Virus record (IMG/VR): IMGVR_UViG_3300044551_000118
Reading direction: 5' to 3' (one strand)
Source of the DNA: a virus
Taxonomy: Duplodnaviria; Heunggongvirae; Uroviricota; Caudoviricetes
Length of the DNA: 64,000 nucleotides
Below the pieces are notes generated by a model that was not told where the DNA came from, ran no database searches, and was given only the letters and a program-made list of their open reading frames with translations. Position numbers and translations under genes: made by a program. Shown in pieces: positions 2,228 through 62,804 of the stretch (the stretch's first letter is position 1; each line of letters begins with the position of its first letter).

Positions 2228-2235
2228 GGGGATAG

Positions 2236-2252
2236 ATATGCGTCCGACGCAT
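2236..2252. promoter_or_regulatory. perfect inverted repeat TATGCGTC-c-GACGCATA in the 35-bp divergent MTase intergenic region
   Basis: Read directly from the sequence. It sits between the start codons at 2227 (minus) and 2263 (plus). It is built from the ATGCGTC/GACGCAT box that recurs across the window. Confidence 0.45.
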
Positions 2253-2262
2253 AAGAGGCTCC

Positions 2263-3042: not shown

Positions 3043-3065
3043 GAGTCGTCCCCATCCCGGTCGTC

Positions 3066-3395
3066 ATGAGGCCGGACGAAGCCGCACGGAGGCTGCACTG
3101 CTCGCTCAGGCATGTCTACGACCTCGACATCCGCATGGTCAGGCCGAGCGCCCGCATCGCGTGGGTGCGCTCGGACAGGCTCAACCGGGCGTCCGGCTCG
3201 CATTTCCCCGAGGAGCGCTTCGTGAGCCACTGGCCCGCGGTCGGCGAGACGGCGGACATGCTGCATGTCTCCGCTAGCATGGTGCACCAGTGGATGAGCG
3301 ACGGGAGGCTGGAGTACCGCAAGCCGCATGCGCGGCTGGCGCTGGTCGACCCGGAGAGTGTCGTCAGGCTCGTCGGGGGAGCGGTGCGGCGCTAG
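3066..3395 (+). CDS. xis: excisionase / HTH DNA-binding protein (Xis-like)
   Basis: Begins 'MRPDEAARRLHCSLRHVYDL', a typical HTH_17 / excisionase N-terminus. Lies downstream of the integrase and MTases. An alternative in-frame GTG start at 3039 overlaps the MTase stop (GTGA). Confidence 0.55.
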   Translation: MRPDEAARRLHCSLRHVYDLDIRMVRPSARIAWVRSDRLNRASGSHFPEERFVSHWPAVGETADMLHVSASMVHQWMSDGRLEYRKPHARLALVDPESVVRLVGGAVRR

Positions 3396-3411
3396 AAAAG
3401 AACAGCAAGAA

Positions 3412-3455
3412 GCCCCCTGCGGCCCGTAATGGGCTTGCAGGGGGCTTCTCTTATA
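3412..3455. terminator. bidirectional stem-loop terminator between convergent genes
   Basis: Hairpin agaagccccctgc...gcagggggcttct followed by a T-rich stretch. Located between the excisionase (plus) and flotillin (minus) stops. Confidence 0.5.
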
Positions 3456-3469
3456 TCTGCTGTGAAATC

Positions 3470-4855: not shown

Positions 4856-4920
4856 ATATGCGCCTGCTGTTCGGCTAGGCGCGCGTCCCTGAGCATCCGC
4901 TGGACGCATATATCAGGGAT

Positions 4921-8130: not shown

Positions 8131-8229
8131 GACGAAGCCAAAGGGCCTGAACGCCCTGTATGGCACCGTCGCTCGGCGGCATGCAACGAACATTCTAAGC
8201 TCTCCGCGCATGGACGCATATCGGCGTCC

Positions 8230-29460: not shown

Positions 29461-29710
29461 GCTCTCCATATGCGTCCCGGATGGGCGGGTATGATCGATT
29501 CCCGCGAGCGACAAGAGCATTAGGGATATGGGGCCGGACGAGCTGAAGGCTGCGGCGACAGAGAGCGAACAGGCGCGCGCCGCAGTGGACGCCGAGCGAC
29601 GACGGCGATGGGATTCGTTCAAGGAAATCCTGAAAACGCCTTTCAAGAGCATCCTCGACTAGGCGCGACGCGCCCGGCGTCCATTAACTGAATCCCCGTA
29701 AATCATCGAA

Positions 29711-30418: not shown

Positions 30419-30674
30419 GCGGGGTGCATGCAGGAGAGCGAGGAAGCGGCGATTCCTCCCCGCCCACAAGGGGCGGAGTTTCCTCGCCGCAAATCTCATG
30501 AAGCCCCCGCGCGAAGCCCAAGCATCTCTCGGACAACCAAGAAAAAGACGGCTTCGCGCGGGGCCTTTTTCCTCAAGCGGGACGCATCAGAGAGGCAACG
30601 AGGGCGCTCAGAGGTCGTCCGAACAGCCAATATGCTGGCAGCGCCCTCGCCCAACCTATAGAAGGAGAACCCAT

Positions 30675-33441: not shown

Positions 33442-33646
33442 GCTGCGCTGCTATGCGAAGAGAGGAGCGCCGCCGGTCGACGCGCGGTCGTTCGCATAAT
33501 CCATGGGGGGCGCTCCTGCCGTGGCATATGCGTCAGAAGGAAGAAAGGGCGCCGGCGGCGCACGTGTGGTTGTGCGCGCCACTTCCCGGGCCTTGCGGCG
33601 CTCTGCGATATCCGATGCGTCCCGCACGGGACGCATATGCCCCTTC

Positions 33647-38089: not shown

Positions 38090-38426
38090 ATTCCCCGCCC
38101 CTTGTGGGCGCGGGAGGAATTGCCGTCCTTTCGCCCGCCCTTCCAGACGCATACATGCACTCATGAAACGGAAGAGCCCGAGCGCCAAGCGGCGGGAGAG
38201 TGCGTCTTCAAGTTCTCGCGTCCGCGTGCTCAACATGCCTCTCGCCTTCACCGAGGAACAGTTCGCGCTTCTGCTTCATGCAGCCGACCTCTACAGTCGC
38301 TGCTGGCAGTCGATAACAGAGTGCGCTGCGCCCATGATGGACGAAGCGCCTGCGATGGCGTCTGCTCTGCAGACAGTCGCAGGAATCACGCTCACGTCCA
38401 AGCCGCAGGGATCGTCCCTGCGGTAA
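38090..38426 (+). mobile_element. tnpB: IS200/IS605-family remnant: left-end-like hairpin plus 5' fragment of tnpB (OrfB_IS605 N-terminal region), copy 1
   Basis: 'RVRVLNMPLAFTEEQFALLLHAADLYSRCW' matches the TnpB N-terminal 'lk.rl.Pt.eQ...l......R..yN' region. ~250 bp (including upstream ccccgccccttgtgggcgcggg) is ~85% identical to 55705..55965. The ORF is truncated after ~90 codons. Confidence 0.55.
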
Positions 38427-43073: not shown

Positions 43074-43149
43074 GGCTCTTTTCCTTTCGATGGGCAGAAT
43101 CGCCTATGATTCCTACATGCGTCCTATTCGCGCAATCCTGTGACGCATA

Positions 43150-43714
43150 TGCGTATCCAGCGCGCGACGTCAACGTTCTCCATAAAGACGATGGCGGCGG
43201 CAGAAGCCCCTTACTGCTTCGTAACGGACCGGGCCAGCGCCGCGCGCATTGCTTTCCTTCGGGACGCATACGAAACACTGCGCGGCGTCAACGTCGCTGC
43301 GTCGAATGGTTTCAACAGCATTCGGCGCGGAGCGATGGCGGGGAGCAGCCCGATCGATCACCTCGGCAAGCCACGACCCCCGCCAGCGCCGCGCCTTTTC
43401 CTCTTATCGGACGCATAGCGCGTATCGCACGGCGTCAACGTCGCCGCCGCGGATCCTTTGAGACAGTCCGTGGGCGGATCGATGGCGGGGATAGGACGAT
43501 TTAGACAACCTTTTTCGTCTGCTGAAGCCCCGCCAGCGCCGTGCATTTTCCTTATCGGACGCATAGGCATTATCAGAACGCGGCGTCAACGCCGCTGCCC
43601 TGCGGGCTTTACGGGATCATTCACTCGCGGGATTGCAGAACGATGGCGGGCGAGGATGGTCTGATAACCTTCCACCCGATGACCCCGCCAGCGCCGCGCT
43701 CTTCCTCTTTTCAG
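43150..43714. repeat. tandem array of four ~120-150-bp non-coding direct repeats
   Basis: Unit starts near 43150, 43270, 43417 and 43565. Conserved blocks per unit: GCGxCGTCAACG, GATGGCGGG, CCCGCCAGCGCCGCGC and TTTCCTxTTATCGGACGCATA. Confidence 0.6.
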
Positions 43715-44404
43715 AATTCCGGCTCGTCCGGGTCTGCGATGAACGAGCCGCGCACCTCCCTGATGCCCGCCAGCCTCTTCCAGACACCCTCGGGGATGTC
43801 CACTCGCTCGCCGTTCGGCCCGTCCACGCGCTTCACGCCCCAGATGCCCACCAGCGCCGCGTCGTGCAGCGCGTGGGAGAAGTCCGGGCCGCTCACAGGC
43901 AGCGCTCCGGGGATAGCCCAAGCGTTGAACGGGGCATCTAGGGGATCGAGCGTGGGGCGCGGATGCTCGGGGGGCTGGTATCGCTTCGGCGCGACGGCGA
44001 GCAGCGCATGCGCGAACTCGACCGGCATCTCGCGGGCGACGTGCGCGACTGTCTCAAGGGACAGGGCGCGGGCCATGGCCTCGTCGCCGTCCATGCCCCG
44101 GACGTGCAGCGCCGAGGCGAATGCGGCGGCCGTGGCGAACGGCATTCCGTTCAGGCCCAGCGCCCCGTAGCGAGAGCGCAGCCACGACCATGACTCGCCG
44201 TCGTCCTCAGGCACGCGACAGGGAACATCCGGCAGGAACTCGAAGTACGGGCGCCAACTCAGCTCGCCCTCATGCATCGCCGCATCCCGCTCGCGCCCGT
44301 GGCCCGGCTGCTCCGCGCGATGCATGGCGATGGCGGCGTCCGCCGCGCGGAGCAGCCCGTCGTCGGCGGAGGAGAGCGCGAAGCCGTTGAAATCTATGGT
44401 CAGC
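43711..44404 (-). CDS. hypothetical protein
   Basis: Start chosen at MLTIDFNGF (internal Met of the 247-aa ORF). No recognised motif. Confidence 0.4.
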
Positions 44405-46256: not shown

Positions 46257-46477
46257 CGCTTTTCGCCGACGCATAACCTGACTTAACCCCCGCGCGAAGC
46301 CTGCCCGAGGCGCCATGTCGTTCCACATCGTTTCTGGCGCCGACGGGCCTTCGCGTGGGGCGCCTCGTATCCGGATAGGGGAAAGCGCGGCAGCTGCCGG
46401 TCCACTGGCCGTACGTTTCCTCGATGAGCTGCGACGCTATTGTCGGCAATCCGTCCCATCCGCGCATAGACATCCAT

Positions 46478-46780: not shown

Positions 46781-47779
46781 ATGGCGAATCGCAGAAGCGG
46801 ATCCTCCGGCGGGATCGGATGGTTCATGGGGTTCCTGGGCACCCTGTTCGCGGTGTGCTGCCTGATGGTGGTGCTCGTCTCCTCGGGCATGTGGCGCACC
46901 CTCGTCGAGACGTTCGGCATCGGCGACGGCGGCGCATCCACATCTCAGCTGACGACGCCCGCCCCCGCGCCCACGCGAGAGTCGGGGGCGAAGACGCCCG
47001 CGCAGTGGCTCTCCGAGCTCTTCGGCCAGGCGACGGGAGCGGCTCCCGAGGCGCCCGCTCCGGCCCTGACGGCGAAGCCGGGCGCCATCCCGTCCATGCC
47101 CAAGGTCGCGATTCCCTCCATTCCCGCGCCCTTGGCCCCGGCGAACGGCTGGGGCGGGCATATCGCCGCCTATAACGCGGCGCTGGGGCAGCTCAATGGC
47201 ATCGCGGTCGCCAAGCCTGCGATAGGCGGATACAATCGCGACGCGCAGTTCGGCGGCTGGGCGAACAGCGCCGCCCTGTGCGGCAAGGGCACGACCCGCG
47301 ACGCCATATTGAAGCGTGATCTGATAGGGGCGACCTCGGACAAGGACTGCCAGGTGACGCTGGGGCTGCTCCACGACCCGTACACGGGCGCGGACATCCC
47401 CTTCAAGCGCGGCACCGGCACTAGCGCCGCCGTGCAGATAGATCATGTCGTCGCCCTGCTCGACGCCTACGGCTCGGGGGCGCGCAGCTGGTCCCAGGCC
47501 AAGCGAGTGCAGTACGCGAACGATCCCGACGTCCTTCTCGCCGCCGACGGGCCGGCGAACATGTCCAAGGGCGCAGGCCTCGACTTCAACGGCACGGCCC
47601 AGTACCGCGCCCAAGGCACGGTCGCGCCCGATGTGTGGATGCCGGACAACAAGGCATATAGGTGCGATTATATGACCAAGCGCGTGAATATTAAAGCCAA
47701 GTACGGCCTGACGATGACGGCGCGCGAGAAGCAGCAGACAGTGCAATACATCGCGGCATGCGCCGCAGGGAAGAACTGA
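46781..47779 (+). CDS. membrane-anchored DUF1524/HNH-like (His-Me finger) nuclease-domain protein
   Basis: N-terminal TM, then a Pro/Ala linker. C-terminal 'VQIDHVVALLDAYGSGA...DPDVLLAADGPANMSKGAG' matches the GmrSD-C/DUF1524 nuclease signature. Confidence 0.55.
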   Translation: MANRRSGSSGGIGWFMGFLGTLFAVCCLMVVLVSSGMWRTLVETFGIGDGGASTSQLTTPAPAPTRESGAKTPAQWLSELFGQATGAAPEAPAPALTAKPGAIPSMPKVAIPSIPAPLAPANGWGGHIAAYNAALGQLNGIAVAKPAIGGYNRDAQFGGWANSAALCGKGTTRDAILKRDLIGATSDKDCQVTLGLLHDPYTGADIPFKRGTGTSAAVQIDHVVALLDAYGSGARSWSQAKRVQYANDPDVLLAADGPANMSKGAGLDFNGTAQYRAQGTVAPDVWMPDNKAYRCDYMTKRVNIKAKYGLTMTAREKQQTVQYIAACAAGKN

Positions 47780-47786
47780 GGAATCC

Positions 47787-48179
47787 TTGGCATCACTCAT
47801 CGCGCAGTGCAATCAGGCCCTTGAGGCCGCCGGCTGGCAGCCGAAGGACAACAGGGATTACTTCACGAAGTGGCATGGAAGGATGGTGCGCGTGCTCATC
47901 ATCGCGGCGTGGGCCGAGGACAGGCACTACGGCGAGCTCATCATCCGGCGCGCGGAGTGCGAATCCTCCGCCCGGCCCGACCAGATGCGGCACATGGCCG
48001 CGTTCGCAGACACTGAGGCGATTCATTTAGGCGAGTGCGAAGGGAGTGCGGATGCGCTGACGAAGCTCCTGACCGGCCTCGACTACTGGTCGGAGCAGAA
48101 TCCGTTCCATGACTCCGCAGAGAAGAGGAATGCCGATATGGCGCTGTTCCGAAGGGGAAGCGCTGCAAGAAAAGGATAG
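47787..48179 (+). CDS. hypothetical protein
   Basis: 130 aa with natural composition. Confidence 0.45.
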   Translation: MASLIAQCNQALEAAGWQPKDNRDYFTKWHGRMVRVLIIAAWAEDRHYGELIIRRAECESSARPDQMRHMAAFADTEAIHLGECEGSADALTKLLTGLDYWSEQNPFHDSAEKRNADMALFRRGSAARKG

Positions 48180-48267
48180 AAAGAGCGGAGAGCCGCTGCC
48201 GGGCCAAGTATGAGCATGCGCTTAATGTTTGTGTAGCAGCTCTCCGCTCGTCATCCTTCATGCGTCC
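48179..48267. repeat. ~90-bp hairpin element, right-flank copy (R1) of the Doc-like module
   Basis: gaaagagcggagagccgctgccgg...gcagctctccgctcgtcatccttcatgcgtcc. Related to 49533..49624, with a compensatory stem change. Confidence 0.45.
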
Positions 48268-48273
48268 GTCATC

Positions 48274-48999
48274 TCAGGGCCGAATGATGGCATGCTCCCT
48301 GAGCCACCCCGCAAGCTCCCGATCGTCGTCACTCCCGTAGTAGCGCAGCAGCATGCCGCGCACGCTCGTGTCCATTTCGGACTGAGGAATGGAGAGCACG
48401 CCCGCGCGTTCTTTGATGAGCAGATGATTGGCGAGCATGATGGCGGTGCGCTTGTTGCCGTCCGTGAACCACTGTCCCCGGCATGTCTGGCAGAACAGAG
48501 ATATGCCGCGATCAACAGGGTCGGGCACATATTCCAGATTGCCTAGGCGCATCTGGATACCCTCCAGCGACGGCGGCATCGGCTTCCATGACGTGCCCGA
48601 GATGCGCACGTCCTCCCGGCGCATGGCGCCTGGATTCGTCGTCAATCCGCCTGCTCCCAGCGTGCGGTTGTACGCGCAGGCGGTGAGCCAGTCGGCGGGC
48701 TCCTCCTCCACTGTGTCGAAGAGCTGCTGCCATGCGTGCTTGATGTTGTTGACGGTCATCACCTTGCTGGCCTGCATGGTGTGCGGCGTCACGCCCTCGA
48801 AAATCTGTTTGGTCTCCGGGAACGTGATGCCCGGCACTTCGATCCCTGCCGTTGTCCACACCAAGTCAATGACCTTGCGCTTGGCGAGTTCGATGCATGG
48901 ATTGCCCGTCTGCGATGCGGCAGGCAGCTCCGGCAGGTCGTTCGCCCCTGCGTTGGGGTCGAAATCGAATTTGCCATCAGGCCGTCTCGGCTGCGTCAT
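48274..48999 (-). CDS. Doc/Fic-family protein with shared N-terminal module (family member 3); catalytic His replaced by Gln
   Basis: N-terminus MTQPRRPDGKFDFDPNAGANDLPEL. Fido motif region 'QWFTDGNKRTAIMLANHLL' matches the Doc signature HxFx(D/N)(A/G)NKR except for Q in place of H. Confidence 0.65.
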   Translation of the reverse strand: MTQPRRPDGKFDFDPNAGANDLPELPAASQTGNPCIELAKRKVIDLVWTTAGIEVPGITFPETKQIFEGVTPHTMQASKVMTVNNIKHAWQQLFDTVEEEPADWLTACAYNRTLGAGGLTTNPGAMRREDVRISGTSWKPMPPSLEGIQMRLGNLEYVPDPVDRGISLFCQTCRGQWFTDGNKRTAIMLANHLLIKERAGVLSIPQSEMDTSVRGMLLRYYGSDDDRELAGWLREHAIIRP

Positions 49000-49523
49000 G
49001 CCGCCATCCTCTCCTTCAGGGGGATAATGATGTTCCCGTGCGCATACTCGCGCAAGGCGGCCTCATCGGGAAGCAGGGACAGATAGCGCTCCCGGTCATT
49101 CGCGGGCACGACCCATACGCCCTCGCCGCTCTGCATCGCCGCATGATTGGCGAGCAGGCCGCCCAGAACCGGGCTGTCATGCAGAACGCTTGCGATATGG
49201 ATGGCATCCCCTTCGAGAGGCACCGCAGGGAGCTTGATTCCGAGAAGTGCGGCATATCGTTTCGCAGCGTCGGCAAGCGACTCTTCATGGCAATCCGCGG
49301 CATATGAGATGCATGATGCAAGAGAGAACACCAGTGCCACATCGCCGACCGGCATGCCCTCGCTCGCCCATCCTGACGCGACGATGCCCGAGACCTGCGT
49401 GAAGCCGATCGACGGCGAGGCGAGGCAGGCCAGCCCGAAGGCCATGTCCTCCGCGCTGGAAAGGAGGAGCCGCTGGATGTCTGTGATCTGCATGCCACTC
49501 ATTCTAGCCGCCGTTCGTTTCAT
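48996..49523 (-). CDS. hypothetical protein, upstream partner of the Doc-like gene
   Basis: 175 aa. Its stop overlaps the Doc-like start (ATGA). Confidence 0.45.
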   Translation of the reverse strand: MKRTAARMSGMQITDIQRLLLSSAEDMAFGLACLASPSIGFTQVSGIVASGWASEGMPVGDVALVFSLASCISYAADCHEESLADAAKRYAALLGIKLPAVPLEGDAIHIASVLHDSPVLGGLLANHAAMQSGEGVWVVPANDRERYLSLLPDEAALREYAHGNIIIPLKERMAA

Positions 49524-49532
49524 ACCGCGATG

Positions 49533-49624
49533 AGAAAAGAGCGAAGAGCCGCTGCCGGTCGTTTTTTTGGGCGTGCGTGTCGATTCTGGGCTATGGCTCT
49601 TCGCTCGTCACCCTTCATGCGTCC
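49533..49624. repeat. ~90-bp hairpin element, left-flank copy (R2) of the Doc-like module
   Basis: gaaaagagcgaagagccgctgccgg...ggctcttcgctcgtcacccttcatgcgtcc. The stem AGAGCGAAGAGCC/GGCTCTTCGCTCG covaries with R1 (G-to-A change compensated by C-to-T). Confidence 0.45.
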
Positions 49625-49675
49625 CATCTTTCTTGACGCATATTCCATCTCAACCCAATAAAGGAGAGAAGTTTT

Positions 49676-50281
49676 ATGAAAACCAAGAAAACGCTCTGGA
49701 TCACCCTCGGCTCCATCGGAGCGGTGGTCGTCCTGCTCGTCATCTCGCTCATCGGCTCCTATAATTCGATGGCAAGCTCAAAGAACGACGTAGAGAATGC
49801 ATGGAGCCAGGTCGAGGTGAGCTACCAGCGCCGCGCCGACCTCATCCCCAATCTCGTGAAGGTCGCCCAGCAGGCATCCGTGCGCGAGCAGGATATCCTC
49901 ACCGCAGCCCTGAACGCCCGCTCCAAGGCCCTGAGCGCCAACGTCGCGCCCGGAGACGCCAATGCCCTTGCCCAGTCGCAGGCCCCTGTGGACAGCGCCC
50001 TGAGCCGCCTTCTGGCGCTCAATGAGTCGTATCCCGACTTGAAGAGCAACCGGAACTGGGAGGATCTGCAATCCCAGCTGGAGGGCACGGAGAATCGAGT
50101 GGCGGTATCCCGATCGGACTACAACGACGCGGTGCGCGGCTACAACGACCGCATCGTGCGCTTCCCCGGCAACGCGCTCGCCGGGATGTTCGGCTTTGAG
50201 AAGGTCGGATACTTCGCCGCCCAGCAGGGTGCGCAGGATGCCCCGTCCATCATGTTCGACAATCCGAGCGCGACCAAGTGA
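49676..50281 (+). CDS. lemA: LemA-family protein
   Basis: N-terminal TM and the conserved LemA core (NAWSQVEVSYQRRADLIPNLV...RYNDAV). Confidence 0.8.
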   Translation: MKTKKTLWITLGSIGAVVVLLVISLIGSYNSMASSKNDVENAWSQVEVSYQRRADLIPNLVKVAQQASVREQDILTAALNARSKALSANVAPGDANALAQSQAPVDSALSRLLALNESYPDLKSNRNWEDLQSQLEGTENRVAVSRSDYNDAVRGYNDRIVRFPGNALAGMFGFEKVGYFAAQQGAQDAPSIMFDNPSATK

Positions 50282-51042: not shown

Positions 51043-51107
51043 GTCCGAATAACACGAAAAGACCGACGCCGCAGATACCTCTATCTGCGGCGTCGGTCTT
51101 TTTTATG

Positions 51108-51878: not shown

Positions 51879-51978
51879 GCGATGTTGTATGCGTCCGGAA
51901 AGAAGGAGAAACAGCCGCCGCGCGCGCCTGGGATATACGGATTGGATGAGGGCGGCTGTATAACTTCTCTTATGCGTC

Positions 51979-52659
51979 CTAGTCTTCCGCGACCAGCCTT
52001 GCCGCTTCGACCGCATCGTCGTACTCAACATACGGCGGATTCTCCGGCGCATTATCTGCGACCGCCATCGCCACCACGTCGGGTCGTCCCAGCCTCTCAT
52101 AATTCCACCCGTCAGGGGCGTATTCGTCATTCCACGCCACGCGGGCGACAGGCCTGAAGCCGTGGCGACCATAGAGGCTCGGCAGACCCCCTCGGATGTC
52201 GTAGCAGTCGAGCCTTCTCGCGCCCCTCTCCACGGCCTTCTCGACCAGTGCGTCGCCGCCGTGCTCGCCTTTGTACGAGAACACGGATACCAGCTCGTCG
52301 CCATCCGCGATGGCGAAGCCGGTGCGCCCGTCCTCGTCCAGATAGAGGTCGTCGCGCAGATAGTCGTCCGCGTCGTGCACATCCACCGCCGAAGCCATCG
52401 GATTGTTCTCCTTGAGCGCCGCGATGCGATCGCGAAACAATTCGGCGTTCTCCGGCGTGGCGTCCAGCTTGAAGAAGAGCTTCGGCGATGCGCTGGGAGC
52501 CGCGCCGTCCAGACTCACGCCGCCTACAGGCTCGCACGGGACCTTGTTTCCGCCGATGCTCAGGTACGCCTTGCGCGGGTTCAGGCTCGGGAGGTCGGAT
52601 GCCCCCGCGTTCGGGTCGAAATCGAATTGCCCGTTGGGCTTCCTAGGCTGATTGGTCAT
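51979..52659 (-). CDS. GNAT-family N-acetyltransferase with shared N-terminal module (family member 4)
   Basis: N-terminus MTNQPRKPNGQFDFDPNAGASDLPSL. C-terminal region shows a GNAT fold pattern (..VSVFSY...GDALVEKAVERGARRLDCYD...LYGRHGFRPV). Confidence 0.6.
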   Translation of the reverse strand: MTNQPRKPNGQFDFDPNAGASDLPSLNPRKAYLSIGGNKVPCEPVGGVSLDGAAPSASPKLFFKLDATPENAELFRDRIAALKENNPMASAVDVHDADDYLRDDLYLDEDGRTGFAIADGDELVSVFSYKGEHGGDALVEKAVERGARRLDCYDIRGGLPSLYGRHGFRPVARVAWNDEYAPDGWNYERLGRPDVVAMAVADNAPENPPYVEYDDAVEAARLVAED

Positions 52660-55622: not shown

Positions 55623-55699
55623 GGTTGGGCCTATGCGTCGGCATGTGACGCATATGGGACGAAATGAACGATTTCTCGATTTCCATGATTTTTGCGGCG

Positions 55700-56125
55700 A
55701 GGCCACTCCTCCCCTTGTGGGCGTGAGAGGAATCGCCGCCTCCTTGCTCCCCCATATGCGCCCCCGCTCTGACGCATACATGCACTCATGAAGCGGAAGA
55801 GCCTGAGCGCCAAGCGGCGGGAGAGTGCATCCTCAAGCCCTCGCGTGCGCGTGCTCAACATGCCTCTCGGCTTCACCGAGGAGCAGTTCTCGCTTCTCAT
55901 GCGCGCAGCCGATCTCTACGGTCGCTGCTGGCGGTCGATAACGGAGTGGTGCTGCGCCCATGAGTCGGCATCGCGCAAGACGGTGCATGAGGCAAATTAC
56001 TACAGGCTGCGAGAAGCGTATCCCGAGCTTCCCGCCCAGTTCGTCATCCGCGCCATAGCTTCGGCCTTAGGCGCGGTCAGGAGCTGGAACTCCGACCATC
56101 CAAGGAGGAAGTGGCGGCATAAGAA
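55700..56125 (+). mobile_element. tnpB: IS200/IS605-family remnant: left-end-like hairpin plus 5' fragment of tnpB, copy 2
   Basis: MKRKSLSAKRRESASSSPRVRVLNMPLGFTEEQFSLLMRAADLYGRCWRSITEW...ANYYRLREAYPELPAQFVIRAIASALGAVRSWNS matches TnpB N-terminal blocks and then degenerates. ~85% nucleotide identity to copy 1. Ends at a hairpin (56120..56168). Confidence 0.55.
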
Positions 56126-56189
56126 GGCCCCTGCGCGTCGAAGTCAAAACGACGTGCAGGGGCCTTCTTATGCCGTTACGACGAAAGCC

Positions 56190-56735
56190 TCAGCCCTTGG
56201 CGTTGTAGTCCGCAGCCAGCGCGTTGAGTGCAGTGAAGAGCTTGTTCACATATACGCACGGGCCGATAATGGCGAGCAGATCGAGAGCGAACCAGCCGGG
56301 AGCCACGAGATTTGCCAGCAGTGACACCGGCACCGAGACGATGAGCGCCCACAGCACGCTCCACAGCCAGTAATCACGGGCGGACACGGTACGCTCCAGA
56401 CCGCGCCGTGCCAGCTCGTCGCCGATGCGGTTCGAGAAGTTGTTGTACCACACCAGCCCGGCGATGCCGAGCGTGATCGGGGAGACGAGGAACGCCAGCA
56501 GGCAATAATGCATGGTCCGCTTGCCGTCATGCGCGGCGATGTTGACGGTGTTCGCGCTCTCGGTCAAGACAACGATATCGTAGATCCCGAGCGTGAGAAT
56601 GCCGAACCCGAGGTACTTGAGCAGCGTGCGGTTCGTCTTACGCGGCGCGATGGGAGCCGTGGAAGCAGAAGCCGCTACCGGTGCGCCTGCAGGCGGGGTC
56701 GGCGGTTCGAGCGGGATGGGATTGGCTTCGGTCAT
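56190..56735 (-). CDS. DUF4234-like small membrane protein
   Basis: Start chosen at MTEANPIPLE. 'LLKYLGFGILTLGIYDIVVL' and repeated TM helices match the DUF4234 pattern. Confidence 0.45.
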   Translation of the reverse strand: MTEANPIPLEPPTPPAGAPVAASASTAPIAPRKTNRTLLKYLGFGILTLGIYDIVVLTESANTVNIAAHDGKRTMHYCLLAFLVSPITLGIAGLVWYNNFSNRIGDELARRGLERTVSARDYWLWSVLWALIVSVPVSLLANLVAPGWFALDLLAIIGPCVYVNKLFTALNALAADYNAKG

Positions 56736-56945
56736 AGGGTCTTCTTTCCTTGGATGCAGGGCGTTCAGCTCAGATGCGGAACGCCCTGCATGGAATATGG
56801 CTATGCGCTGCTGGACGCATGACAAGAGACAAGCCGCCCGCCCAAAGCGTGCACGAACGCCCGAAAGATCTTCGGCGGACGACCTTATGCAACAAGAGGC
56901 CCCCTGCGGAAATCGCTTCCGCAGGGGGCCTCCGTCTCTCCGCTA

Positions 56946-57968
56946 TCAGCTCTTCTGGCTCTTGGCGCGATGCCTCTTGACGGCTGCAAGCGCAATGCCG
57001 GCTCCCGCCAGCACGACGGCCGGGGTGACGACCGCGCCGATCTCGGCGCCCGTCGTGGCGAGCTGGGCCTCCGGCTGTTTGGCTGCGACTGGCGTCGGCT
57101 TGACTGCGGAGGCCGGCGCAGTGGACGGCTTGCTCTTGTCCGTCACGGGCTTCTTCGCGGCATCAGCCGGCTTGGTCGTGCCCTTGTCCGGATTGTCGGG
57201 AGTCACGGGATTGTCGGGCTTCGTCGGGTCCACTGGAGCCGTGGTTGAACTGTCGTTCGCTCCGGTGGCGATGAGCGGGAACCCCGAATCCCAGACCGAG
57301 GCTTCGCTGCCGTCGGCGGCTCCGACCGGAGTGGCCCTGACGGCGGGCGCGATGGCCCTCTTCGATCCGGGGGCGGTGCGGATCAAATAGACGCCCTCGC
57401 TCAGCGTGAAGGCGTCGTCGGCCGACGTATCGATGATCTGGGCGGCAGGCGGCAATCCGTCGCTCTTCGAGAGCGCATCCGCGAACGCGGACATATCCGC
57501 ATCGGAGACGAGTGGGAGAAGCCCTTTGTTGAGATTGTCGAAGACAGCCTGGAGCGGATTGGACGGATCCGGCTTCGCGGTGGTTCTCATGCCGTCCGGC
57601 ATCGCCTTGTAGACGAGCGCGGGATCGAATCCGGCGACCGGCTCCATGACGGCGGTCGAAAGCGCGCACTGATGGTCGCCTTCGTCGCACGATCCCACGG
57701 TCACGTCGGTGTAGGTCGCCAGCGGGATGGCCTCGATCAGGACGTCGCCCTTGGGGAGCGGCCTCTCCGCATTCGTCGTCGGGTCTCCGAAGTTGATGGT
57801 GATGTGCGTATCCCTGCCGATGTCGAAATAGCCGCTCGGGTCGCTTGCCATGGCAGCCGGCGCGAATGACAGGCATGCCGCCAGCGCCGCGGCGGACGCC
57901 AGGATCGTTTTTCTTCTCAAGATCTCCCTTTCTACGGGATTGTCGTTGTCGTCGGAATCGCTATGCAT
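56946..57968 (-). CDS. LAxTG-anchored surface protein, paralog of the N-terminal region of the 22229..24010 pilin-like protein
   Basis: Signal peptide. Block 'EAIPLATYTD...AMPDGMRTTAKPDPSNPLQAVFD...MSAFADALSKSDGLPPAA...GVYLIRTAPG' aligns with the 22229 product. Pro/Thr/Lys-rich stalk. C-terminal LATTG + TM + KRHRAKSQKS. Confidence 0.7.
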   Translation of the reverse strand: MHSDSDDNDNPVEREILRRKTILASAAALAACLSFAPAAMASDPSGYFDIGRDTHITINFGDPTTNAERPLPKGDVLIEAIPLATYTDVTVGSCDEGDHQCALSTAVMEPVAGFDPALVYKAMPDGMRTTAKPDPSNPLQAVFDNLNKGLLPLVSDADMSAFADALSKSDGLPPAAQIIDTSADDAFTLSEGVYLIRTAPGSKRAIAPAVRATPVGAADGSEASVWDSGFPLIATGANDSSTTAPVDPTKPDNPVTPDNPDKGTTKPADAAKKPVTDKSKPSTAPASAVKPTPVAAKQPEAQLATTGAEIGAVVTPAVVLAGAGIALAAVKRHRAKSQKS

Positions 57969-58042
57969 CGGCGAAAAGCGCCAAGGACGCGGCGGCGGAT
58001 CACCCTACGGGGCGATCCGCCGCCGCGTCCTTGGCGGAGAAA

Positions 58043-59485
58043 TCAGGCCCTGCGCCGCCGCGCGGCGGCGAGCATCCAGCCTGCGGTCAGCAGCATGGCG
58101 CTCAGCACGGCGAGAGGCATTGCGTTCACGCCGGTCTGCGCGAGCTTGACGGGGGCCTGGGCCTCATGCTTCACGGGCTGCGGAGCCGGTGCTGCGGGCT
58201 TCGGCGTCAGGTCGGTCACGCTGATGTTATCCAGCGCGAAGTCGTTGCCGTTGCCGTTGTTGCTCGGCACCTTGTCGTAGTTCTGCCCGACGAGGCCGGA
58301 GGCGTTGGTCCGATCGGTCGGCCAGCCGTACTCCATCGAGAACGTCCTGCCGTCGCGCGTGAACTCATTGGGCGAGCCGTCGTTGTAGTTGTTGTCGGAC
58401 GACCACTGGAAGCCGGGACGGGTGCCATCGACGGGCTTGAAGAACATATTGCCGTCAGCATCCCAATCCTGAGTCAGCCCCGGCAGCTGTCCCGGCCCGA
58501 CCTCGGAGTTCGGGTAGTTGCCCACGCCGGTGCCGAACGAGCTGTGCGCGGATGCGTCGGTGACGTGCAGCGTGATGCCGCCCGTCACGTCGGGCACATG
58601 CACGACGGCTGTGACGCGCCCGTAATGCACCGCGTTGTTCCCATCCGTGTAGCCCTGCCATTTGGCGGATGGAGTGCCGTCGTAGTCGGCGAACAGCGCC
58701 CCCGCGTTTTTGAGATGCAGCGTCCTGAAGCCGTCCTGCGTGCAGGGGTCGATGGGGGCGCCGACCGGATGGCTCACGCCGCCCTGCGTGTAGGAGAGCT
58801 GGAGGCTCGGGTGCGTGTCCGCAGGCGCGTCGCAGTAGGTGGCTGCGGCGTCATAGGAGAATGCGATGTCGCGCCCGGAGCCGTCCGGGAACGTGATGGG
58901 CTTCGTCGTGCCGAAGACGTCCGCATCCGGCTTGCCGCCCGATGTGTTGTCCGCGAGGGCGCGGTTGGATGCGGCCTTGTCCGGGTCGCTCAGCAGTCCC
59001 AGCGCGTACGCCTTGGCCCGAACGGCGAGGAAGTCCGCGTATGGGGTCGTGGTGCTGCCGTCCCAGCCGATGTTGCGTCCGCAGTACGTATCGTCCACGG
59101 CGCGCTGCGAGGGCTGTCCGTGATCGGGATCCGAAACGATCGCTCCTTCGCCGACGTCGCCGAAGGCGTCGGGCATCCAGTTGGGGTCGGTCTGCTCGAT
59201 GGTCTGGCCGTTATCCTGCAGCGTGGTGCTGGCGTCGCCGATGATGCCGTTGCAGTATCCGGCGTTCGAATAGTAGTCGGAGGCGGACAGTCCCTTGCCG
59301 TACGCTTTGAGCGTGGTCAGACCGCCCGTGCCGAAATCCTCCGAATAGACTACCGTCCCATTATTCTGCGGGGGGGGGGTGCCGTTATCGGCCATCGCCG
59401 CCGGGGCGATAGCCAGGCATGCGGCCAGGATGGCGCCGGATGCCGCGATGGGCTTGCGTGGTTGCAAAATCATTCTCCTTTCCAT
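58043..59485 (-). CDS. LAxTG-anchored surface protein (hypothetical, Gly/Asp/Thr-rich)
   Basis: Signal peptide, a ~400-aa domain without recognised motifs, and C-terminal LAQTG + TM + RRRRA. Confidence 0.7.
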   Translation of the reverse strand: MERRMILQPRKPIAASGAILAACLAIAPAAMADNGTPPPQNNGTVVYSEDFGTGGLTTLKAYGKGLSASDYYSNAGYCNGIIGDASTTLQDNGQTIEQTDPNWMPDAFGDVGEGAIVSDPDHGQPSQRAVDDTYCGRNIGWDGSTTTPYADFLAVRAKAYALGLLSDPDKAASNRALADNTSGGKPDADVFGTTKPITFPDGSGRDIAFSYDAAATYCDAPADTHPSLQLSYTQGGVSHPVGAPIDPCTQDGFRTLHLKNAGALFADYDGTPSAKWQGYTDGNNAVHYGRVTAVVHVPDVTGGITLHVTDASAHSSFGTGVGNYPNSEVGPGQLPGLTQDWDADGNMFFKPVDGTRPGFQWSSDNNYNDGSPNEFTRDGRTFSMEYGWPTDRTNASGLVGQNYDKVPSNNGNGNDFALDNISVTDLTPKPAAPAPQPVKHEAQAPVKLAQTGVNAMPLAVLSAMLLTAGWMLAAARRRRA

Positions 59486-59601
59486 GAAGATAATTCAGAA
59501 GGACATATGCGTCCATCAGGAGAAGGAAAAGGCGGAGCGCCGCGTCGGGGATGGATGCTCGGGGCATTGCCGGGCGCTCCGCCTATCGCACTGCATGCGT
59601 C

Positions 59602-60552
59602 CTAATCAGACAAAGCCGCCGCATACGCCTCCATGAGCCTGCGCACGACAGGAGCCATGTCCGCAGGCAGCCTGTAGTCATCGTCTCGCAACGCCACGAT
59701 GCGCAACCATCCCTCGTCCAGCTCGGCCTTCGACATCGAAGCCGCCTTGGCGGCTTCTGGCGCATCGACGCCTGCGGCAAGCGCGAGCATGCCCGTCCTA
59801 TCCGCCGCATCGAGCCGCATGCGGGCCTTCGCCATATTGCTGTACGCCGCGGCGCGCTGCTCCTCCGTCCACGTCAGGCTCTCCTCCACGCCATCCGCCG
59901 CCAGCCGGGCGTTCGTCACGGCCTTGCCCAGGCACACGATGCCGCGCACGTTCAGCCAGCCGACCTGAACCCGGTGCTGGTCGCGGTAGAGCGAGCGGGC
60001 CGCCTTGCGGGCGGCATCCGCGGTATCGGGAGCCGGCTCCGCCATCCATGCCTTGAGCGCATCCGAGAACCGATCGACCTTCGGCTCTCCCGGCTGTCCG
60101 GTCATATGCCAGACGATCAGCTCGGACACGACCGCTCCGTGCGCGCGGGCGCGCCGTGGCTCGTCGAGCCATGCACGGCACTCGGGCCACCAGGCGGCGG
60201 CGTAATGCAGGTCATCCGCATCGCCGATCGAAGCCAGCATGCGGATGAGCGAAGATGCAAGCGGGTCGTCGCCCGGATGCGATTTCGGCTTGCGCGGAGC
60301 GTTCTTCGTTTCGACAGGCGCGCATTCGGGGCAGCGCACGCGCTTGGGGAACAGGTCAGTCGGCTTCTCGCCATGGAAGTTCGCGGAGAAGCGGGAGACT
60401 GCATGCCCGCATTCGAGCCTCAGCTCATAGCGCCTGTTGAGCCAGTAGTGGTAATGCTGGCCCCAGATATCCGAGTCATTACCGCGATCGTGGACGACGA
60501 TGGATGCGACCTTGCGCAGGGGCTGAATTTGTTTGCTCATAGGCGATGACAT
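59602..60552 (-). CDS. hypothetical protein (N-terminal Cys/His cluster)
   Basis: 316 aa. N-terminus has a CGH...CPEC arrangement suggestive of a zinc finger. High GC3. Confidence 0.5.
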   Translation of the reverse strand: MSSPMSKQIQPLRKVASIVVHDRGNDSDIWGQHYHYWLNRRYELRLECGHAVSRFSANFHGEKPTDLFPKRVRCPECAPVETKNAPRKPKSHPGDDPLASSLIRMLASIGDADDLHYAAAWWPECRAWLDEPRRARAHGAVVSELIVWHMTGQPGEPKVDRFSDALKAWMAEPAPDTADAARKAARSLYRDQHRVQVGWLNVRGIVCLGKAVTNARLAADGVEESLTWTEEQRAAAYSNMAKARMRLDAADRTGMLALAAGVDAPEAAKAASMSKAELDEGWLRIVALRDDDYRLPADMAPVVRRLMEAYAAALSD

Positions 60553-60650
60553 GCGTCTAGGAGGGAAAAAGGCGGGGCACCGAGCGCGATCTGGGCATTC
60601 GCAAGGCGCTTGGGCGTTCCGCCTACCATCCCATATGCGTCAGGCGCAAT

Positions 60651-61373
60651 CTAGTAGTGGATAAACGAATGCTCTGCAGCTTGTTTCGCGGAGAACGTGC
60701 GCGACATCGTCCGCCCGTCCAGCGCCGCGCCGCTCTCGGATGTCGTGATCGAGCCGTCTCTGCCGATGGATTCCACGATGGCGACGTGGCCGTACTGCGC
60801 GGAGGAGCCGTCCTGCCCGGCTGCGAACACCATGACGTCGCCCGCGTGCCGGGGAACATCGTCCACCCAGTAGCCGAGCTTCCGGGCTGAATCCGCCCAC
60901 ATGTCCCCGTTGCCCAAGTGCGAGCCGACTGGAAGGCCGAGCTGATGGCGGCGCACGTAGGCCCACCAGGTGCACTGCGAAAACTCGTAGGCATTGCCGC
61001 TGTCCCCGGTCGGATGATCGGGGTTGAAGCCGGATGGCAGCAGGCTCTCGTCCGTCCCGTTGACCCACGCCCGCACCGTCGCATTGGATGCCGGGATGGC
61101 GGACAGGCTCTTCGCGTCGATGCCACCACCGCTCTGCCAGACGCCCGTGACGGGCGTGCGCGCGCTTGAGCGCGAGACCTCGCCGCCGGCATCCGCAGGG
61201 CGGCTCAGGGCGATGCGGGAGGCGTTCTGAGAGGGTGTCGCCGGGGCGTTCGCCATCGCCAGCGAGGGTACGAGCGCCAGCAGCGAAAGCGGCGCGAGCG
61301 AGAGCCACATGGCCCGCTTGCGCTTCCGTCTGCTCTCCCGCCGCGTCGGAGCAGGCTTGTGCCGCGCGCTCAC
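60651..61373 (-). CDS. secreted CHAP-domain peptidoglycan amidase/peptidase
   Basis: Signal peptide. 'EFSQCTWWAYVRR...GHVAIVESI' gives the Cys...His CHAP arrangement. Such hydrolases commonly accompany Gram-positive conjugative transfer clusters. Confidence 0.75.
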   Translation of the reverse strand: MSARHKPAPTRRESRRKRKRAMWLSLAPLSLLALVPSLAMANAPATPSQNASRIALSRPADAGGEVSRSSARTPVTGVWQSGGGIDAKSLSAIPASNATVRAWVNGTDESLLPSGFNPDHPTGDSGNAYEFSQCTWWAYVRRHQLGLPVGSHLGNGDMWADSARKLGYWVDDVPRHAGDVMVFAAGQDGSSAQYGHVAIVESIGRDGSITTSESGAALDGRTMSRTFSAKQAAEHSFIHY

Positions 61374-62701: not shown

Positions 62702-62804
62702 GTATCCACGCTATGCGTCCGCGCGGCGCATAGCGATGCCGCGAGCGCGCCGAGAGACGGCGCGGACATCCTCTCCCCCAAGAGAAGGAAGGAAGCACAT
62801 CCCC

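Follow-up and report, generated by a model that had tools for sequence, protein, structure and literature searches.

Morons of phages and plasmids are accessory transcription units that carry a promoter and a terminator of their own and are inserted between backbone genes. The attC sites of integrons are imperfect palindromes of ~60–140 nt with conserved arms and a variable center, and they occur at cassette borders. REP/BIME sequences, the Correia elements of Neisseria and the RUP and BOX elements of pneumococcus are short, structured, lineage-specific repeats at gene boundaries, which can have promoter or terminator activity and can act as recombination hot spots. Bidirectional intrinsic terminators place a G+C-rich stem with a loop of 3–8 nt between convergent genes. 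In the Bifidobacterium megaplasmid pMP7017, a plasmid-family motif that is absent from chromosomes overlaps the -10 region of 19 promoters distributed over the plasmid, and no attached hairpin family has been described (PMC10832533).

The stretch of DNA analyzed in this study (64,000 nt, hereafter the window) is a Bifidobacterium-type conjugative element with conjugative-type genes, including those for FtsK/SpoIIIE-like, NlpC/P60, CHAP and pilus/adhesin proteins. A plasmid database contained no close relative at the DNA level and only distant actinobacterial megaplasmids at the protein level; pMP7017 is likewise only distantly related, with 28% identity between the FtsK-like proteins. The element uses a canonical short-loop terminator at 51057–51102. 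Elsewhere in the window, two structured direct repeats, R1 and R2, flank a Fic-like gene and its partner. The original prediction proposed that these flanks serve either site-specific cassette exchange of the attC type or as paired terminator/insulator structures.

Each of the systems named above shares certain features with this locus. Similar to a moron, the Fic pair is a discrete accessory unit of lower G+C content (~61% vs. ~66% for the window) with its own putative transcription signals, and its two neighboring genes stand side by side in related strains. However, both of its boundaries belong to one repeat family that also punctuates backbone genes. R1 and R2 have the general form of attC sites, but neither RYYYAAC nor GTTRRRY occurs on either strand (the ends of the repeats read AAGAGCG... 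and ...CATGCGTCC), IntI and an attI platform are absent, and no array with one site per cassette was apparent. The dispersed repeats are matched by 11 homologous copies at unrelated intergenic sites in the window (E<0.002) that have loop positions in common. Unlike those repeats, the copies described here lack terminal inverted repeats, show no duplicated target site other than the box itself and have very long loops, and a promoter-type box of 8 nt stands at a fixed 10 nt from the stem. The only copies detected came from this element and its close relatives. The GGACGCAT box behaves like the pMP7017 motif, although the two sequences are unrelated (a 34-bp AWAYATGYTATACTGAATATGTCCACATAAAAWA vs. 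an 8-nt box). Finally, R1 resembles a bidirectional intrinsic terminator in having a G+C-rich stem between convergent genes and a T-rich tail on one side, whereas the loops of the family span 31–52 nt, R2 separates divergent genes, a position in which a terminator would not be expected, and a promoter-type box stands just upstream. A terminator scan of the hairpins flagged only a 5-bp mini-hairpin inside one arm.

Results

Structure of the flanking repeats

The module, its boundary elements and the neighboring box are as follows.

48274..48999, minus strand, Fic/Doc-like gene, 241 aa (Pfam PF02661, 32.1 bits; cut-off 24)
48996..49523, minus strand, partner gene, 175 aa from the first ATG (alternative starts 49502 and 49493)
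48171..48267, minus strand, whole R1 boundary element (best covariance-model match, 95.5 bits); in minus-strand order, box GGACGCAT 48267-48260, spacer 48259-48250, arm 48249-48235, loop 48234-48198, arm 48197-48183, T/C-rich tail 48182-48171
49527..49624, minus strand, whole R2 boundary element (covariance model, 85.1 bits); in minus-strand order, box 49624-49617, spacer 49616-49607, arm 49606-49595, loop 49594-49551, arm 49550-49539, T-rich tail 49538-49527
49634..49641, plus strand, TGACGCAT box of the LemA promoter region, back-to-back with the R2 box (ATGCGTCC-N10-TGACGCAT)

According to the original prediction, R1 (48179-48267) and R2 (49533-49624) are direct repeats that fold into stems with a compensatory change and that flank the two-gene module, and these claims were borne out. 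The repeats were seen both by reading the sequence and with a repeat finder. Their 5′ blocks (48180-48202 and 49536-49558) agree at 22/23 positions and their 3′ blocks (48239-48267 and 49596-49624) at 27/29, the 37–44 nt between the blocks are unrelated loops that cannot be aligned, and the longest exact identity never exceeds 14 nt. Each block occurs exactly twice in the window, whereas 0.01 and 0.00 occurrences are expected from shuffles. The stem of R1 joins 48183-48197 to 48235-48249 (15 nt, 93%) with one bulged base, and that of R2 joins 49539-49550 to 49595-49606 (12 nt, 100%) with none. The pair G48188-C48244 of R1 corresponds to A49544-T49601 in R2, and the orthologous R1 of the related strain L008 also has A-T at this position. 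In an alignment of eight sequences, this pair and two others change on both sides, and 87.5% of the cells are paired, compared with 38–57% when the partners are slid; the stem is under selection.

Folding was examined on both strands. As RNA, R1 reaches -40.5 kcal/mol on the plus strand (z -3.8) and -33.3 on the minus strand (z -2.8), and R2 reaches -34.9 (z -1.4) and -32.9 (z -2.5), respectively. Single-stranded DNA folded with DNA parameters forms the same stem with weaker z values (-1.0 to -2.6). The loops measure 37 nt in R1 and 44 nt in R2, and in a manual comparison of R1, R2 and the L008 copy of R1, the arms were ~90–96% identical and the loops ~40–58%. On the minus strand, the stem is followed by the U-rich tract TTTCTATCCTTTTCTT in R1 and TTTTCTCATC in R2.

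R1 lies between the stop codon of a 130-aa gene (48177-48179, plus strand) and that of the Fic-like gene (48274-48276, minus strand; 6 nt from R1). R2 lies upstream of the partner gene, 9 nt from its first ATG (49523), in a divergent region shared with LemA. The conserved 3′ block ends in an 8-nt motif, ATGCGTCC, that recurs throughout the window, a recurrence that had been overlooked in the original prediction. A small peptide starting at the ATG inside the box was rejected as a candidate: the reading frame is not conserved, and the L008 copy stops after three codons.

The Fic-like gene and its partner

The description of the module as Doc-like holds for the Fic fold (PF02661) and fails for the catalytic histidine, a recognized antitoxin and the DOC_P1 score (19.7 bits, below the cut-off of 38.65). 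The protein reads QWFTDGNKR, with glutamine at the expected catalytic histidine, and matches neither HxFx(D/N)(A/G)NKR of Doc nor HxFx(D/E)GNGRxxR of Fic; a homologue in the relative L029 (46% identical) also has glutamine in this motif. The partner gene, to which metagenome gene callers assign 168 aa, overlaps the Fic-like gene by 4 nt. Its product has no match in Pfam, NCBIfam or PDB, and no Phd/YefM, VbhA or other recognized antitoxin was found upstream of the Fic-like gene. The partner protein of L029 is weakly Fic-like. Upstream of more distant Fic homologues, a 185-aa protein is encoded that weakly matches a ribbon-helix-helix model and has no significant similarity to the partner described here. 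The Fic-homologue loci of Bifidobacterium sp. BRDM6 and of the P0008/P0009 type show little or no box enrichment; at these loci, the hairpin search covered only the box-adjacent sites in L030.

A promoter-type box

ATGCGTCY occurs 36 times in the window, compared with 6.9 occurrences expected, and it is also enriched in related elements within the genomes of four Bifidobacterium species. Because it commonly sits 10 (9–11) nt upstream of start codons, the GGACGCAT box looks like an element-specific promoter box. The back-to-back arrangement of the R2 and LemA boxes is repeated at other divergent gene pairs (e.g., 2238-2252). In some strains, the box after a 226-aa gene has been deleted with no other change.

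A family of hairpins at gene boundaries

R1 and R2 are not a unique pair but the two most similar copies of a hairpin family with at least 11 members. A search of the window with a covariance model built from eight copies retrieved 11 elements (E<0.002), including seven that were not in the seed, and related contigs contain further copies. All members in the window sit at gene boundaries; in addition to R1 and R2, they include the following.

59518..59602, minus strand, between two minus-strand genes (63.9 bits), with boxes on both sides (59595-59602 and 59507-59514)
60558..60642, minus strand, downstream of the CHAP gene (58.9 bits), at the right-hand junction of a 4.9-kb indel
51900..51979, minus strand, between the 226-aa gene and the FGase gene (37.1 bits; outside the seed alignment), with boxes on both sides
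33453..33622, minus strand, two tandem members (32 and 21.8 bits) directly upstream of the FtsK/SpoIIIE-like gene (start codon 33441)
30485..30659, plus strand, two adjacent members, the second in the 5′ leader of a gene starting at 30676
46372..46456, minus strand, a weaker member (21.3 bits) with the degenerate box GGACGGAT

On the bottom strand, the layout is box GGACGCAT, a 10-nt spacer, a G+C-rich stem of 9–17 bp, a loop of 31–52 nt, the second arm and a pyrimidine- or T-rich tail, for a total of ~85–100 nt. The tails begin with TTTC, TTTTC or TTTCC, the stems mostly start with a purine, and the loop positions GCCC, CGNA, CCA and CGGC are kept across the family. The box-to-stem distance is 10 nt in most copies and reaches 15 nt; a long-loop hairpin follows at 10–15 nt in seven of 49 box sites, compared with 2% of random positions (p=5e-5). 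Four copies lie 0–8 nt past stop codons (R1, 51979, 59602 and 60642), others stand just upstream of genes (R2, 33535 and 30580), and the orientation is always that of the gene concerned. At 43.1–43.7 kb, the window also contains four tandem box-led structured units. The suggestion that the loops are hypervariable was rejected: strains share a conserved loop in the 51900-51979 copy, and the difference between the window and L008 in the R1 loop fits neutral divergence (the segment is ~13% diverged).

The opposite strand folds more stably than the box-led strand in all 12 copies examined. Such strand asymmetry, together with the conjugative-type gene content and the orientation bias of the copies, would be compatible with hairpins acting in single-stranded DNA during conjugation, as priming signals or as single-strand promoters on the transferred strand. 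However, the orientation of the copies follows that of the genes, which points to transcription, the fold with DNA parameters is only marginally better than that of shuffles, and the stems contain no -35/-10-like sequence. We consider a role in conjugation extremely improbable.

The position of the box admits another explanation, according to which each box and its hairpin form a small transcription unit. The box would direct initiation at the first base of the stem, and the product would be an RNA of ~75–85 nt ending in a U-rich tail or, where a gene follows, a 5′-terminal leader hairpin. This RNA would regulate or stabilize neighboring transcripts, and R1 and R2 would be RNA genes or leaders rather than mere terminators. 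Consistent with this explanation, the stem lies as far from the box as the ATG does in putatively leaderless genes, stems usually open with a purine, and the loop positions are conserved. Moreover, at R2, 33535 and 30580, the hairpin and the gene that follows are not separated by another box, so that the hairpin would be the leader of the gene, and the tandem units at 43.1–43.7 kb have the same box-led arrangement. However, the fold is weaker on the strand that would be transcribed, and some strains have lost the box after the 226-aa gene with no other change. Furthermore, no Rfam family reached its gathering score in the window (a relaxed search of 48150-48300 and 59480-60680 only yielded far sub-threshold microRNA-precursor and snoRNA models), and the R1 and R2 loops have no antisense matches elsewhere in the window that are longer than expected by chance. 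On balance, independent small units appear unlikely, although by no means negligible.

Beyond the element and its close relatives, the family was not detected in 84 kb of related elements from four Bifidobacterium species, even with the search filters off. Exact-pattern scans for the hairpin found no match in one-genome-per-species contigs or in JGI metagenome contigs, a collection apparently without samples carrying the element. In viral contigs, the 3′-block pattern had no match, and the three matches to the 5′-block pattern were rejected as chance occurrences inside coding sequence.

Strain polymorphism and mosaic junctions

Two segments of the window differ from related strains in a manner that bears on the history of the module.

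48060..49700, patch differing from the empty-site strain L018; outside it, the two are mostly 97–100% identical
55640..60557, four-gene 4.9-kb segment absent from L018 and L006, bounded by ATGCGTC direct repeats (the box sequence, at 55633-55639 and 60551-60557)

The presence/absence polymorphism that the original prediction suggested looking for does exist. In strains L018, L019 and L021, the module is missing, and the 130-aa gene is followed directly by LemA with a single hairpin left between them. Strain L020 has two hairpins at a site where L018 has one. The 5′ arm and loop of the empty-site hairpin are those of the first L020 hairpin, its 3′ arm and tail resemble those of the second, and it pairs less well than the first; the single hairpin of the empty-site strains has the appearance of a hybrid. 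In L020, the 55 nt that separate the two hairpins have no significant match to the Fic module and therefore provide no evidence of a deleted module. The ends of the 48060..49700 patch fall inside the 130-aa gene and inside LemA codons 1–8, not in the hairpins. A mosaic junction is located at R1, where the identity between the window and L008 shifts from ~86% to ~100%. Between the 130-aa gene and LemA, no alternative cassettes were seen, only the presence or absence of this one module.

These observations bear directly on the proposal that the hairpins are sites of a dedicated attC-like exchange, in which the folded hairpins would be cut by a recombinase and gene cassettes, the Fic pair among them, would be inserted or excised. 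The conserved arms around variable loops, the compensatory stem changes, the retention of exactly one hybrid-looking hairpin at the empty site, a second indel bounded by family sequences and two mosaic junctions at elements are all compatible with such exchange. However, further copies also stand between backbone conjugation genes and as gene-free tandems. A single tyrosine recombinase was found in the window (1-1284); it is 47 kb from the module and scores 19.2 bits against the integron integrase model TIGR02249 (cut-off 265). The attC-like reading is therefore unsupported: the R″/L″-L′/R′ consensus sequences and an integron integrase are absent, copies lie among backbone genes and in tandem pairs devoid of genes, the breakpoints relative to the empty-site strain fall in flanking genes, and R2 occupies a divergent promoter region with its box back-to-back with that of LemA. 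Moreover, a single kind of cassette is found at the site, and the pattern scans of public genome and metagenome collections returned no further copies. We regard dedicated exchange of this type as very unlikely.

Alternatively, the hairpins may be non-autonomous mobile repeats, comparable to REP elements or IS200/IS605-derived palindromes, that are moved as single-stranded DNA by an HUH/Y1 transposase recognizing a hairpin at a fixed distance from a box target, and the flanking of the Fic pair would be incidental. With the box at a constant spacing on the 5′ side of the hairpin, the elements are organized in a way that resembles the IS608 left end and REP elements. The family is also confined to one lineage (11 copies in the 64-kb window vs. 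none in 84 kb of box-bearing Bifidobacterium elements), several copies have boxes on both sides, the copy number at one site differs between L018 and L020, and in a related element an IS605-type TnpA/TnpB pair adjoins the same nuclease gene. However, no Y1 transposase was found among the window ORFs scanned, the hairpins are much longer than those of REP or IS200 ends, no single element was observed as a clean insertion polymorphism, and the box has an independent promoter-like role. Mobility of this type is, in our opinion, rather improbable.

Discussion

We believe, with moderate confidence, that R1 and R2 are lineage-specific transcription-boundary repeats, each combining a terminator or leader hairpin with a promoter box, and that they also serve as junctions for ordinary recombination. 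Of the two readings in the original prediction, the terminator/insulator reading fits best because the family occurs at many gene boundaries, is co-oriented with transcription and has T/C-rich tails; the site-specific exchange reading was not supported. R1 would terminate the partner-Fic operon and, in the other direction, the convergent 130-aa gene, and R2, which heads the operon and adjoins the divergent LemA promoter box, would serve as its leader or insulator hairpin. Flanked by the two elements, the Fic pair would be a self-contained, moron-like accessory transcription unit, and the loops of 31–52 nt would be fast-evolving sequence around a conserved stem. Because many gene boundaries carry these short sequences as direct repeats, hairpins and boxes could serve as ordinary recombination junctions, and recombination between repeats would leave the unit present in some strains and a single hybrid-looking hairpin in others. 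The analysis establishes how the elements are built, that they form a family, that their stems are under selection, that strains differ at the locus and where the breakpoints lie; we infer the terminator or leader activity of the hairpin, the promoter activity of the box and the mechanism of recombination.

Several features stand against transcription punctuation. Intrinsic terminators do not usually have loops of 31–52 nt, and in all 12 copies examined, the fold is better on the strand that would not be transcribed. It is also odd for a terminator-like hairpin to follow a promoter-type box at exactly 10 nt, and this arrangement would better fit a hairpin transcribed from its own start. The loop positions conserved across the family suggest more than a generic terminator. 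With respect to recombination, the exact identity between R1 and R2 (≤14 nt) is short for a RecA-dependent process. A more active role is also conceivable: the box and hairpin units would be elements of a new kind, either promoter-driven hairpin RNAs or hairpin sites of a further recombinase or HUH enzyme, that have spread within this conjugative element and mediate the gain, loss and shuffling of modules. We consider such a role rather improbable. If either version were true, the element would contain a non-integron cassette system in which the junctions double as transcription signals.

If the transcription-boundary reading is right, one element-specific box and one hairpin family punctuate most transcription units of a gut-bifidobacterial conjugative element, and accessory modules are gained and lost between strains at these same short repeats, as seen in two indels. 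This case also cautions that structured direct repeats flanking a toxin-like gene should not automatically be considered integron-like. The fixed 10-nt spacing between box and stem, the long loops with conserved positions and the restriction to one lineage are unusual and leave room for a more specific function. The repeats would then offer a concrete and testable way to approach gene regulation and modular evolution in mobile elements of a family that has been little studied.

Genomic setting and the Fic module

The window encodes FtsK/SpoIIIE-like, NlpC/P60, CHAP, phage-type lysozyme and SpaA-like proteins, a PIF1-type helicase, two DNA methylases and one tyrosine recombinase. Relatives of the FtsK-like protein with 53-56% identity occur on contigs of Bifidobacterium castoris, B. 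canis, B. cuniculi and B. animalis, and more distant ones on actinobacterial megaplasmids, pMP7017 included; the plasmid collection held no close relative of the window. The window thus belongs to a conjugative element, either an ICE or a megaplasmid, from a high-G+C, Bifidobacterium-like host. The recombinase at the window edge (1-1284, plus strand; Phage_integrase, E 1.5e-13) and the two DNA methyltransferases among the scanned ORFs are consistent with an integrative element.

Features at and near the module
48179-48267, hairpin repeat R1, direct repeat with R2
48274-48999, minus strand, Fic-fold gene, 241 aa (PF02661, 32 bits)
48996-49523, minus strand, partner gene, 175 aa, no family match
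49533-49624, hairpin repeat R2, direct repeat with R1
51979-52659, minus strand, acetyltransferase-like ORF, 226 aa

The two-gene module has a secreted GmrSD_C/DUF1524-type nuclease gene and a 130-aa ORF on its left, and genes for LemA and a TPM-domain protein on its right. The Fic fold is present and the motif QWFTDGNKR is Doc-like, but Gln occupies the position of the catalytic His; the DOC_P1 score is under the cut-off, no antitoxin is recognisable, and the partner matched nothing in Pfam, NCBIfam or PDB. The Gln recurs in a 46% identical Fic homologue from a more distant relative (L029), whose partner protein shows a weak resemblance to Fic proteins (E 3e-6), so the window pair may be two Fic-fold paralogues instead of toxin and antitoxin. 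In that relative (1453-4522), the pair immediately follows the GmrSD_C gene, has the opposite orientation and lacks flanking hairpins; the link between this gene pair and the nuclease gene therefore predates the hairpins. At the site that the 130-aa gene and the module occupy in the window, a related element from the same JGI project (L034/L035, 9533-11088) has an IS605-type TnpB and a Y1 TnpA just downstream of the homologous nuclease gene. The Fic-like protein (48925-48999, minus strand) and the 226-aa ORF (52582-52659, minus strand) are alike over a segment of 23 N-terminal residues (PRxPxGxFDFDPNAGAxDLPxL; 78% identity, E 7e-10), the remainder of both proteins being unrelated; the segment may serve two cargo enzymes as a common targeting or secretion signal.

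Structure of the two repeats

R1 and R2 exist as the original prediction described them. They share a 23-nt block (48180-48202 and 49536-49558, one mismatch) and a 29-nt block (48239-48267 and 49596-49624, two mismatches), each present exactly twice in the window (expected, 0.01 and 0.00), and the 37-44 nt between the blocks are not alignable. In R1, 48183-48197 pairs with 48235-48249, and in R2, 49539-49550 pairs with 49595-49606. The covarying pair that had been claimed is borne out: G48188-C48244 in R1 has A49544-T49601 as its counterpart in R2, and because the R1 orthologue of the related strain L008 also has A-T there, the double change is evidently a genuine compensatory event. When eight copies are aligned, three stem pairs are seen to change on both sides, and 87.5% of cells are paired compared with 38-57% when the partners are slid. 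The proposed folding of RNA and single-stranded DNA gave RNA folds on both strands of both repeats, the plus strand being stronger in each, and DNA-parameter folds with only a slight margin over shuffles. The last 8 nt of the conserved 3′ block are a short promoter-type motif (the box), which at R2 stands back-to-back with the LemA box as ATGCGTCC-N10-TGACGCAT.

A lineage-specific hairpin family

A first profile of six copies gave weak intergenic matches elsewhere in the window, and these sites, when read directly, have the architecture of R1 and R2: on the bottom strand, GGACGCAT and a spacer of ~10 nt lead into a stem of 9-17 bp that closes a loop of 31-52 nt, with a pyrimidine/T-rich tail behind the return stem. 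A covariance model of eight copies, run on the window with filters off, found 11 elements at E<0.002.

Hairpin elements found with the covariance model
30485-30576, plus strand
30580-30659, plus strand
33453-33535, minus strand
33537-33622, minus strand
46372-46456, minus strand
48171-48267, minus strand, R1
49527-49624, minus strand, R2
51900-51979, minus strand
56813-56897, plus strand
59518-59602, minus strand
60558-60642, minus strand

The match at 56813-56897 is probably marginal; it is a plus-strand element between two minus-strand genes, and its box resembles the upstream half of a palindromic promoter site. In the model-based alignment, loop positions are kept across the family (GCCC, CGNA, CCA, CGGC just ahead of the return stem), and the copies are therefore homologous over their full length. 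A hairpin of this type follows 7 of 49 box sites, compared with 2% of random positions (p=5e-5). R1 and R2 thus flank the module as predicted but are not a pair unique to it, as other members lie between backbone genes or in tandem.

Rfam gave no gathering-score match anywhere in the window, and relaxed searches of 48150-48300 and 59480-60680 returned far sub-threshold matches only. The family was also not matched, with filters off, in 84 kb of four related Bifidobacterium elements; it is confined to the window's lineage. The hairpins do form a dispersed repeat family, and a related element carries IS605-type TnpA/TnpB beside the same nuclease gene, as might be expected if they were a mobile REP-like element; no IS605-type TnpA/TnpB gene was present among the ORFs scanned in the window, and we regard this origin as quite improbable.

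The box motif

The window has 36 occurrences of ATGCGTCY where 6.9 would be expected, an over-representation of about five times, and 57 of the 7-mer where 16 would be. Many genes, on either strand, have the box in the GGACGCAT orientation 10 (9-11) nt ahead of their start codon (for example, 2238-2252, 4902-4909, 8212-8219, 29470-29477, 38145-38152, 51889-51896, 60551-60558 and 62713-62720), and divergent gene pairs have back-to-back boxes between them. The box often has a partial inverted copy upstream (ATGCG-N6-13-CGCAT). Such geometry is that expected for a -10-region promoter box of leaderless mRNAs, or for an operator overlapping one, and we consider the motif to be probably an element-specific promoter/operator box for leaderless genes. 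It is enriched upstream of genes in the four related elements (B. castoris, canis, cuniculi and animalis) and absent or rare in unrelated Bifidobacterium loci. A precedent is the plasmid-specific 34-bp motif of pMP7017, which overlaps the -10 region of 19 promoters (PMC10832533).

The box copy after the 226-aa gene is dispensable, since a 14-nt indel (TTCTCTTATGCGTC, 51965-51979) removes it in some strains that are otherwise identical (comparison with L001/L008). A long near-identical stretch over box and gene start (...CCTTGTGGGCG.GAGGAAT.GCCG...GACGCATACATGCACTCATGAARCGGAAGAGCC.GAGCGCCAAG) is common to 38100-38190 and 55720-55810, which points to gene starts that are paralogous or to duplication of a promoter-plus-5′ module. 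The 640-nt intergenic region at 43100-43715 (plus strand) contains four tandem units of ~147 nt, which Tandem Repeats Finder did not report. The units open with (G/T)GACGCATA, hold GGCGTCAACG(T/C)CGC, GATGGCGGG and CCGCCAGCGCCG(C/T)GC, and continue into a T/C-rich tail; they may form a long-range stem (GCGCGGCG/CGCCGCGC) and could be iterons, an oriT-type region or tandem small RNA genes.

Strain comparison and junctions

The module, both hairpins and the same neighbours occur in eight metagenomic contigs. Empty sites, reached through a 95%-identical homologue of the 130-aa protein, include the module-less strains with one hairpin left that the original prediction had named as a check: in L018, L019 and L021, LemA directly follows the 130-aa gene with a single hairpin between. 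In L020, two hairpins (L020a and L020b) stand 55 nt apart with no gene between them. In the single hairpin, the 5′ arm and loop are those of L020a, and the 3′ arm, tail and downstream box resemble L020b. It pairs less well than L020a and looks like a recombinant of two copies.

On either side of the module, the window and L018 are mostly 97-100% identical, with a fall to 84-92% at one patch (46986-47584). The divergent patch at the module runs from 48060 to about 49700 and ends within the 130-aa gene and within the first codons of LemA, which argues for homologous recombination in the flanking genes as the exchange between these two strains. Against L008, identity jumps from ~86% to ~100% within a few nt of R1. 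A second indel of 4.9 kb (about 55640-60557), with genes for a DUF4234 protein and three ORFs without family, occurs in the window, L007 and L010 but is absent from L018 and L006, where the CHAP gene directly follows NlpC/P60; direct ATGCGTC repeats mark its ends, and the 60558-60642 hairpin lies at one junction. The identity switch at R1 and these indel ends show that boxes and hairpins repeatedly mark mosaic junctions.

A dedicated hairpin recombination system is nevertheless a very improbable cause. The attC-like exchange originally proposed is contradicted by the absence of the core-site consensus from R1 and R2, by an integron-integrase score of 19 bits against a 265-bit cut-off for the window's only tyrosine recombinase, and by the copies between backbone genes and in tandem; we therefore rejected attC membership.

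Among the window R1, the L008 R1 and R2, identity is about 90-96% over arms, spacer and box, compared with about 40-58% over the loops (manual comparison); the segment of the R1 orthologues diverges by about 13% overall. These values suggest that the loops evolve roughly neutrally, that the arms are constrained or homogenised, and that R1 and R2 are old paralogues. A fresh duplication from an insertion event was rejected on the same values.

A proposed transcription-linked role

R1 and the copies at 51979, 59602 and 60642 start 0-8 nt past the stop codon of a bottom-strand gene, the TAG stop overlapping the box in two of the four, and R2 and the copies at 33535 and 30580 lie directly upstream of a same-strand gene without an intervening box. 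The copies are thus co-oriented with transcription; their tails start TTTC, TTTTC or TTTCC. This arrangement favours a function tied to transcription, whether as terminator, insulator or leader. The terminator/insulator alternative of the original prediction agrees with the stem, the T-rich tail and the co-orientation, but the loops are very long where an intrinsic terminator has a short one, and all 12 of the 12 copies examined are more stable on the opposite strand. A third point against a plain terminator is that the element also has a canonical one; ordinary terminators are therefore used by the host as well. That terminator (51057-51102) is bidirectional, with a 20-bp stem, a 4-6 nt loop and T runs on both sides, and sits between the TPM gene and the FGase gene. 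The hairpin's own box may drive its transcription, and the main rival explanation takes the box-hairpin units to be small RNA genes or leaders themselves, which we consider unlikely.

Judging from these comparisons, we lean modestly towards a reading in which R1 and R2 delimit an accessory transcription unit that is self-contained, both being members of a lineage-specific family that would punctuate the whole element. Through their repetition in direct orientation, the hairpins and the box they carry would be preferred junctions for ordinary recombination, and this preference would give the module its cassette-like presence and absence.
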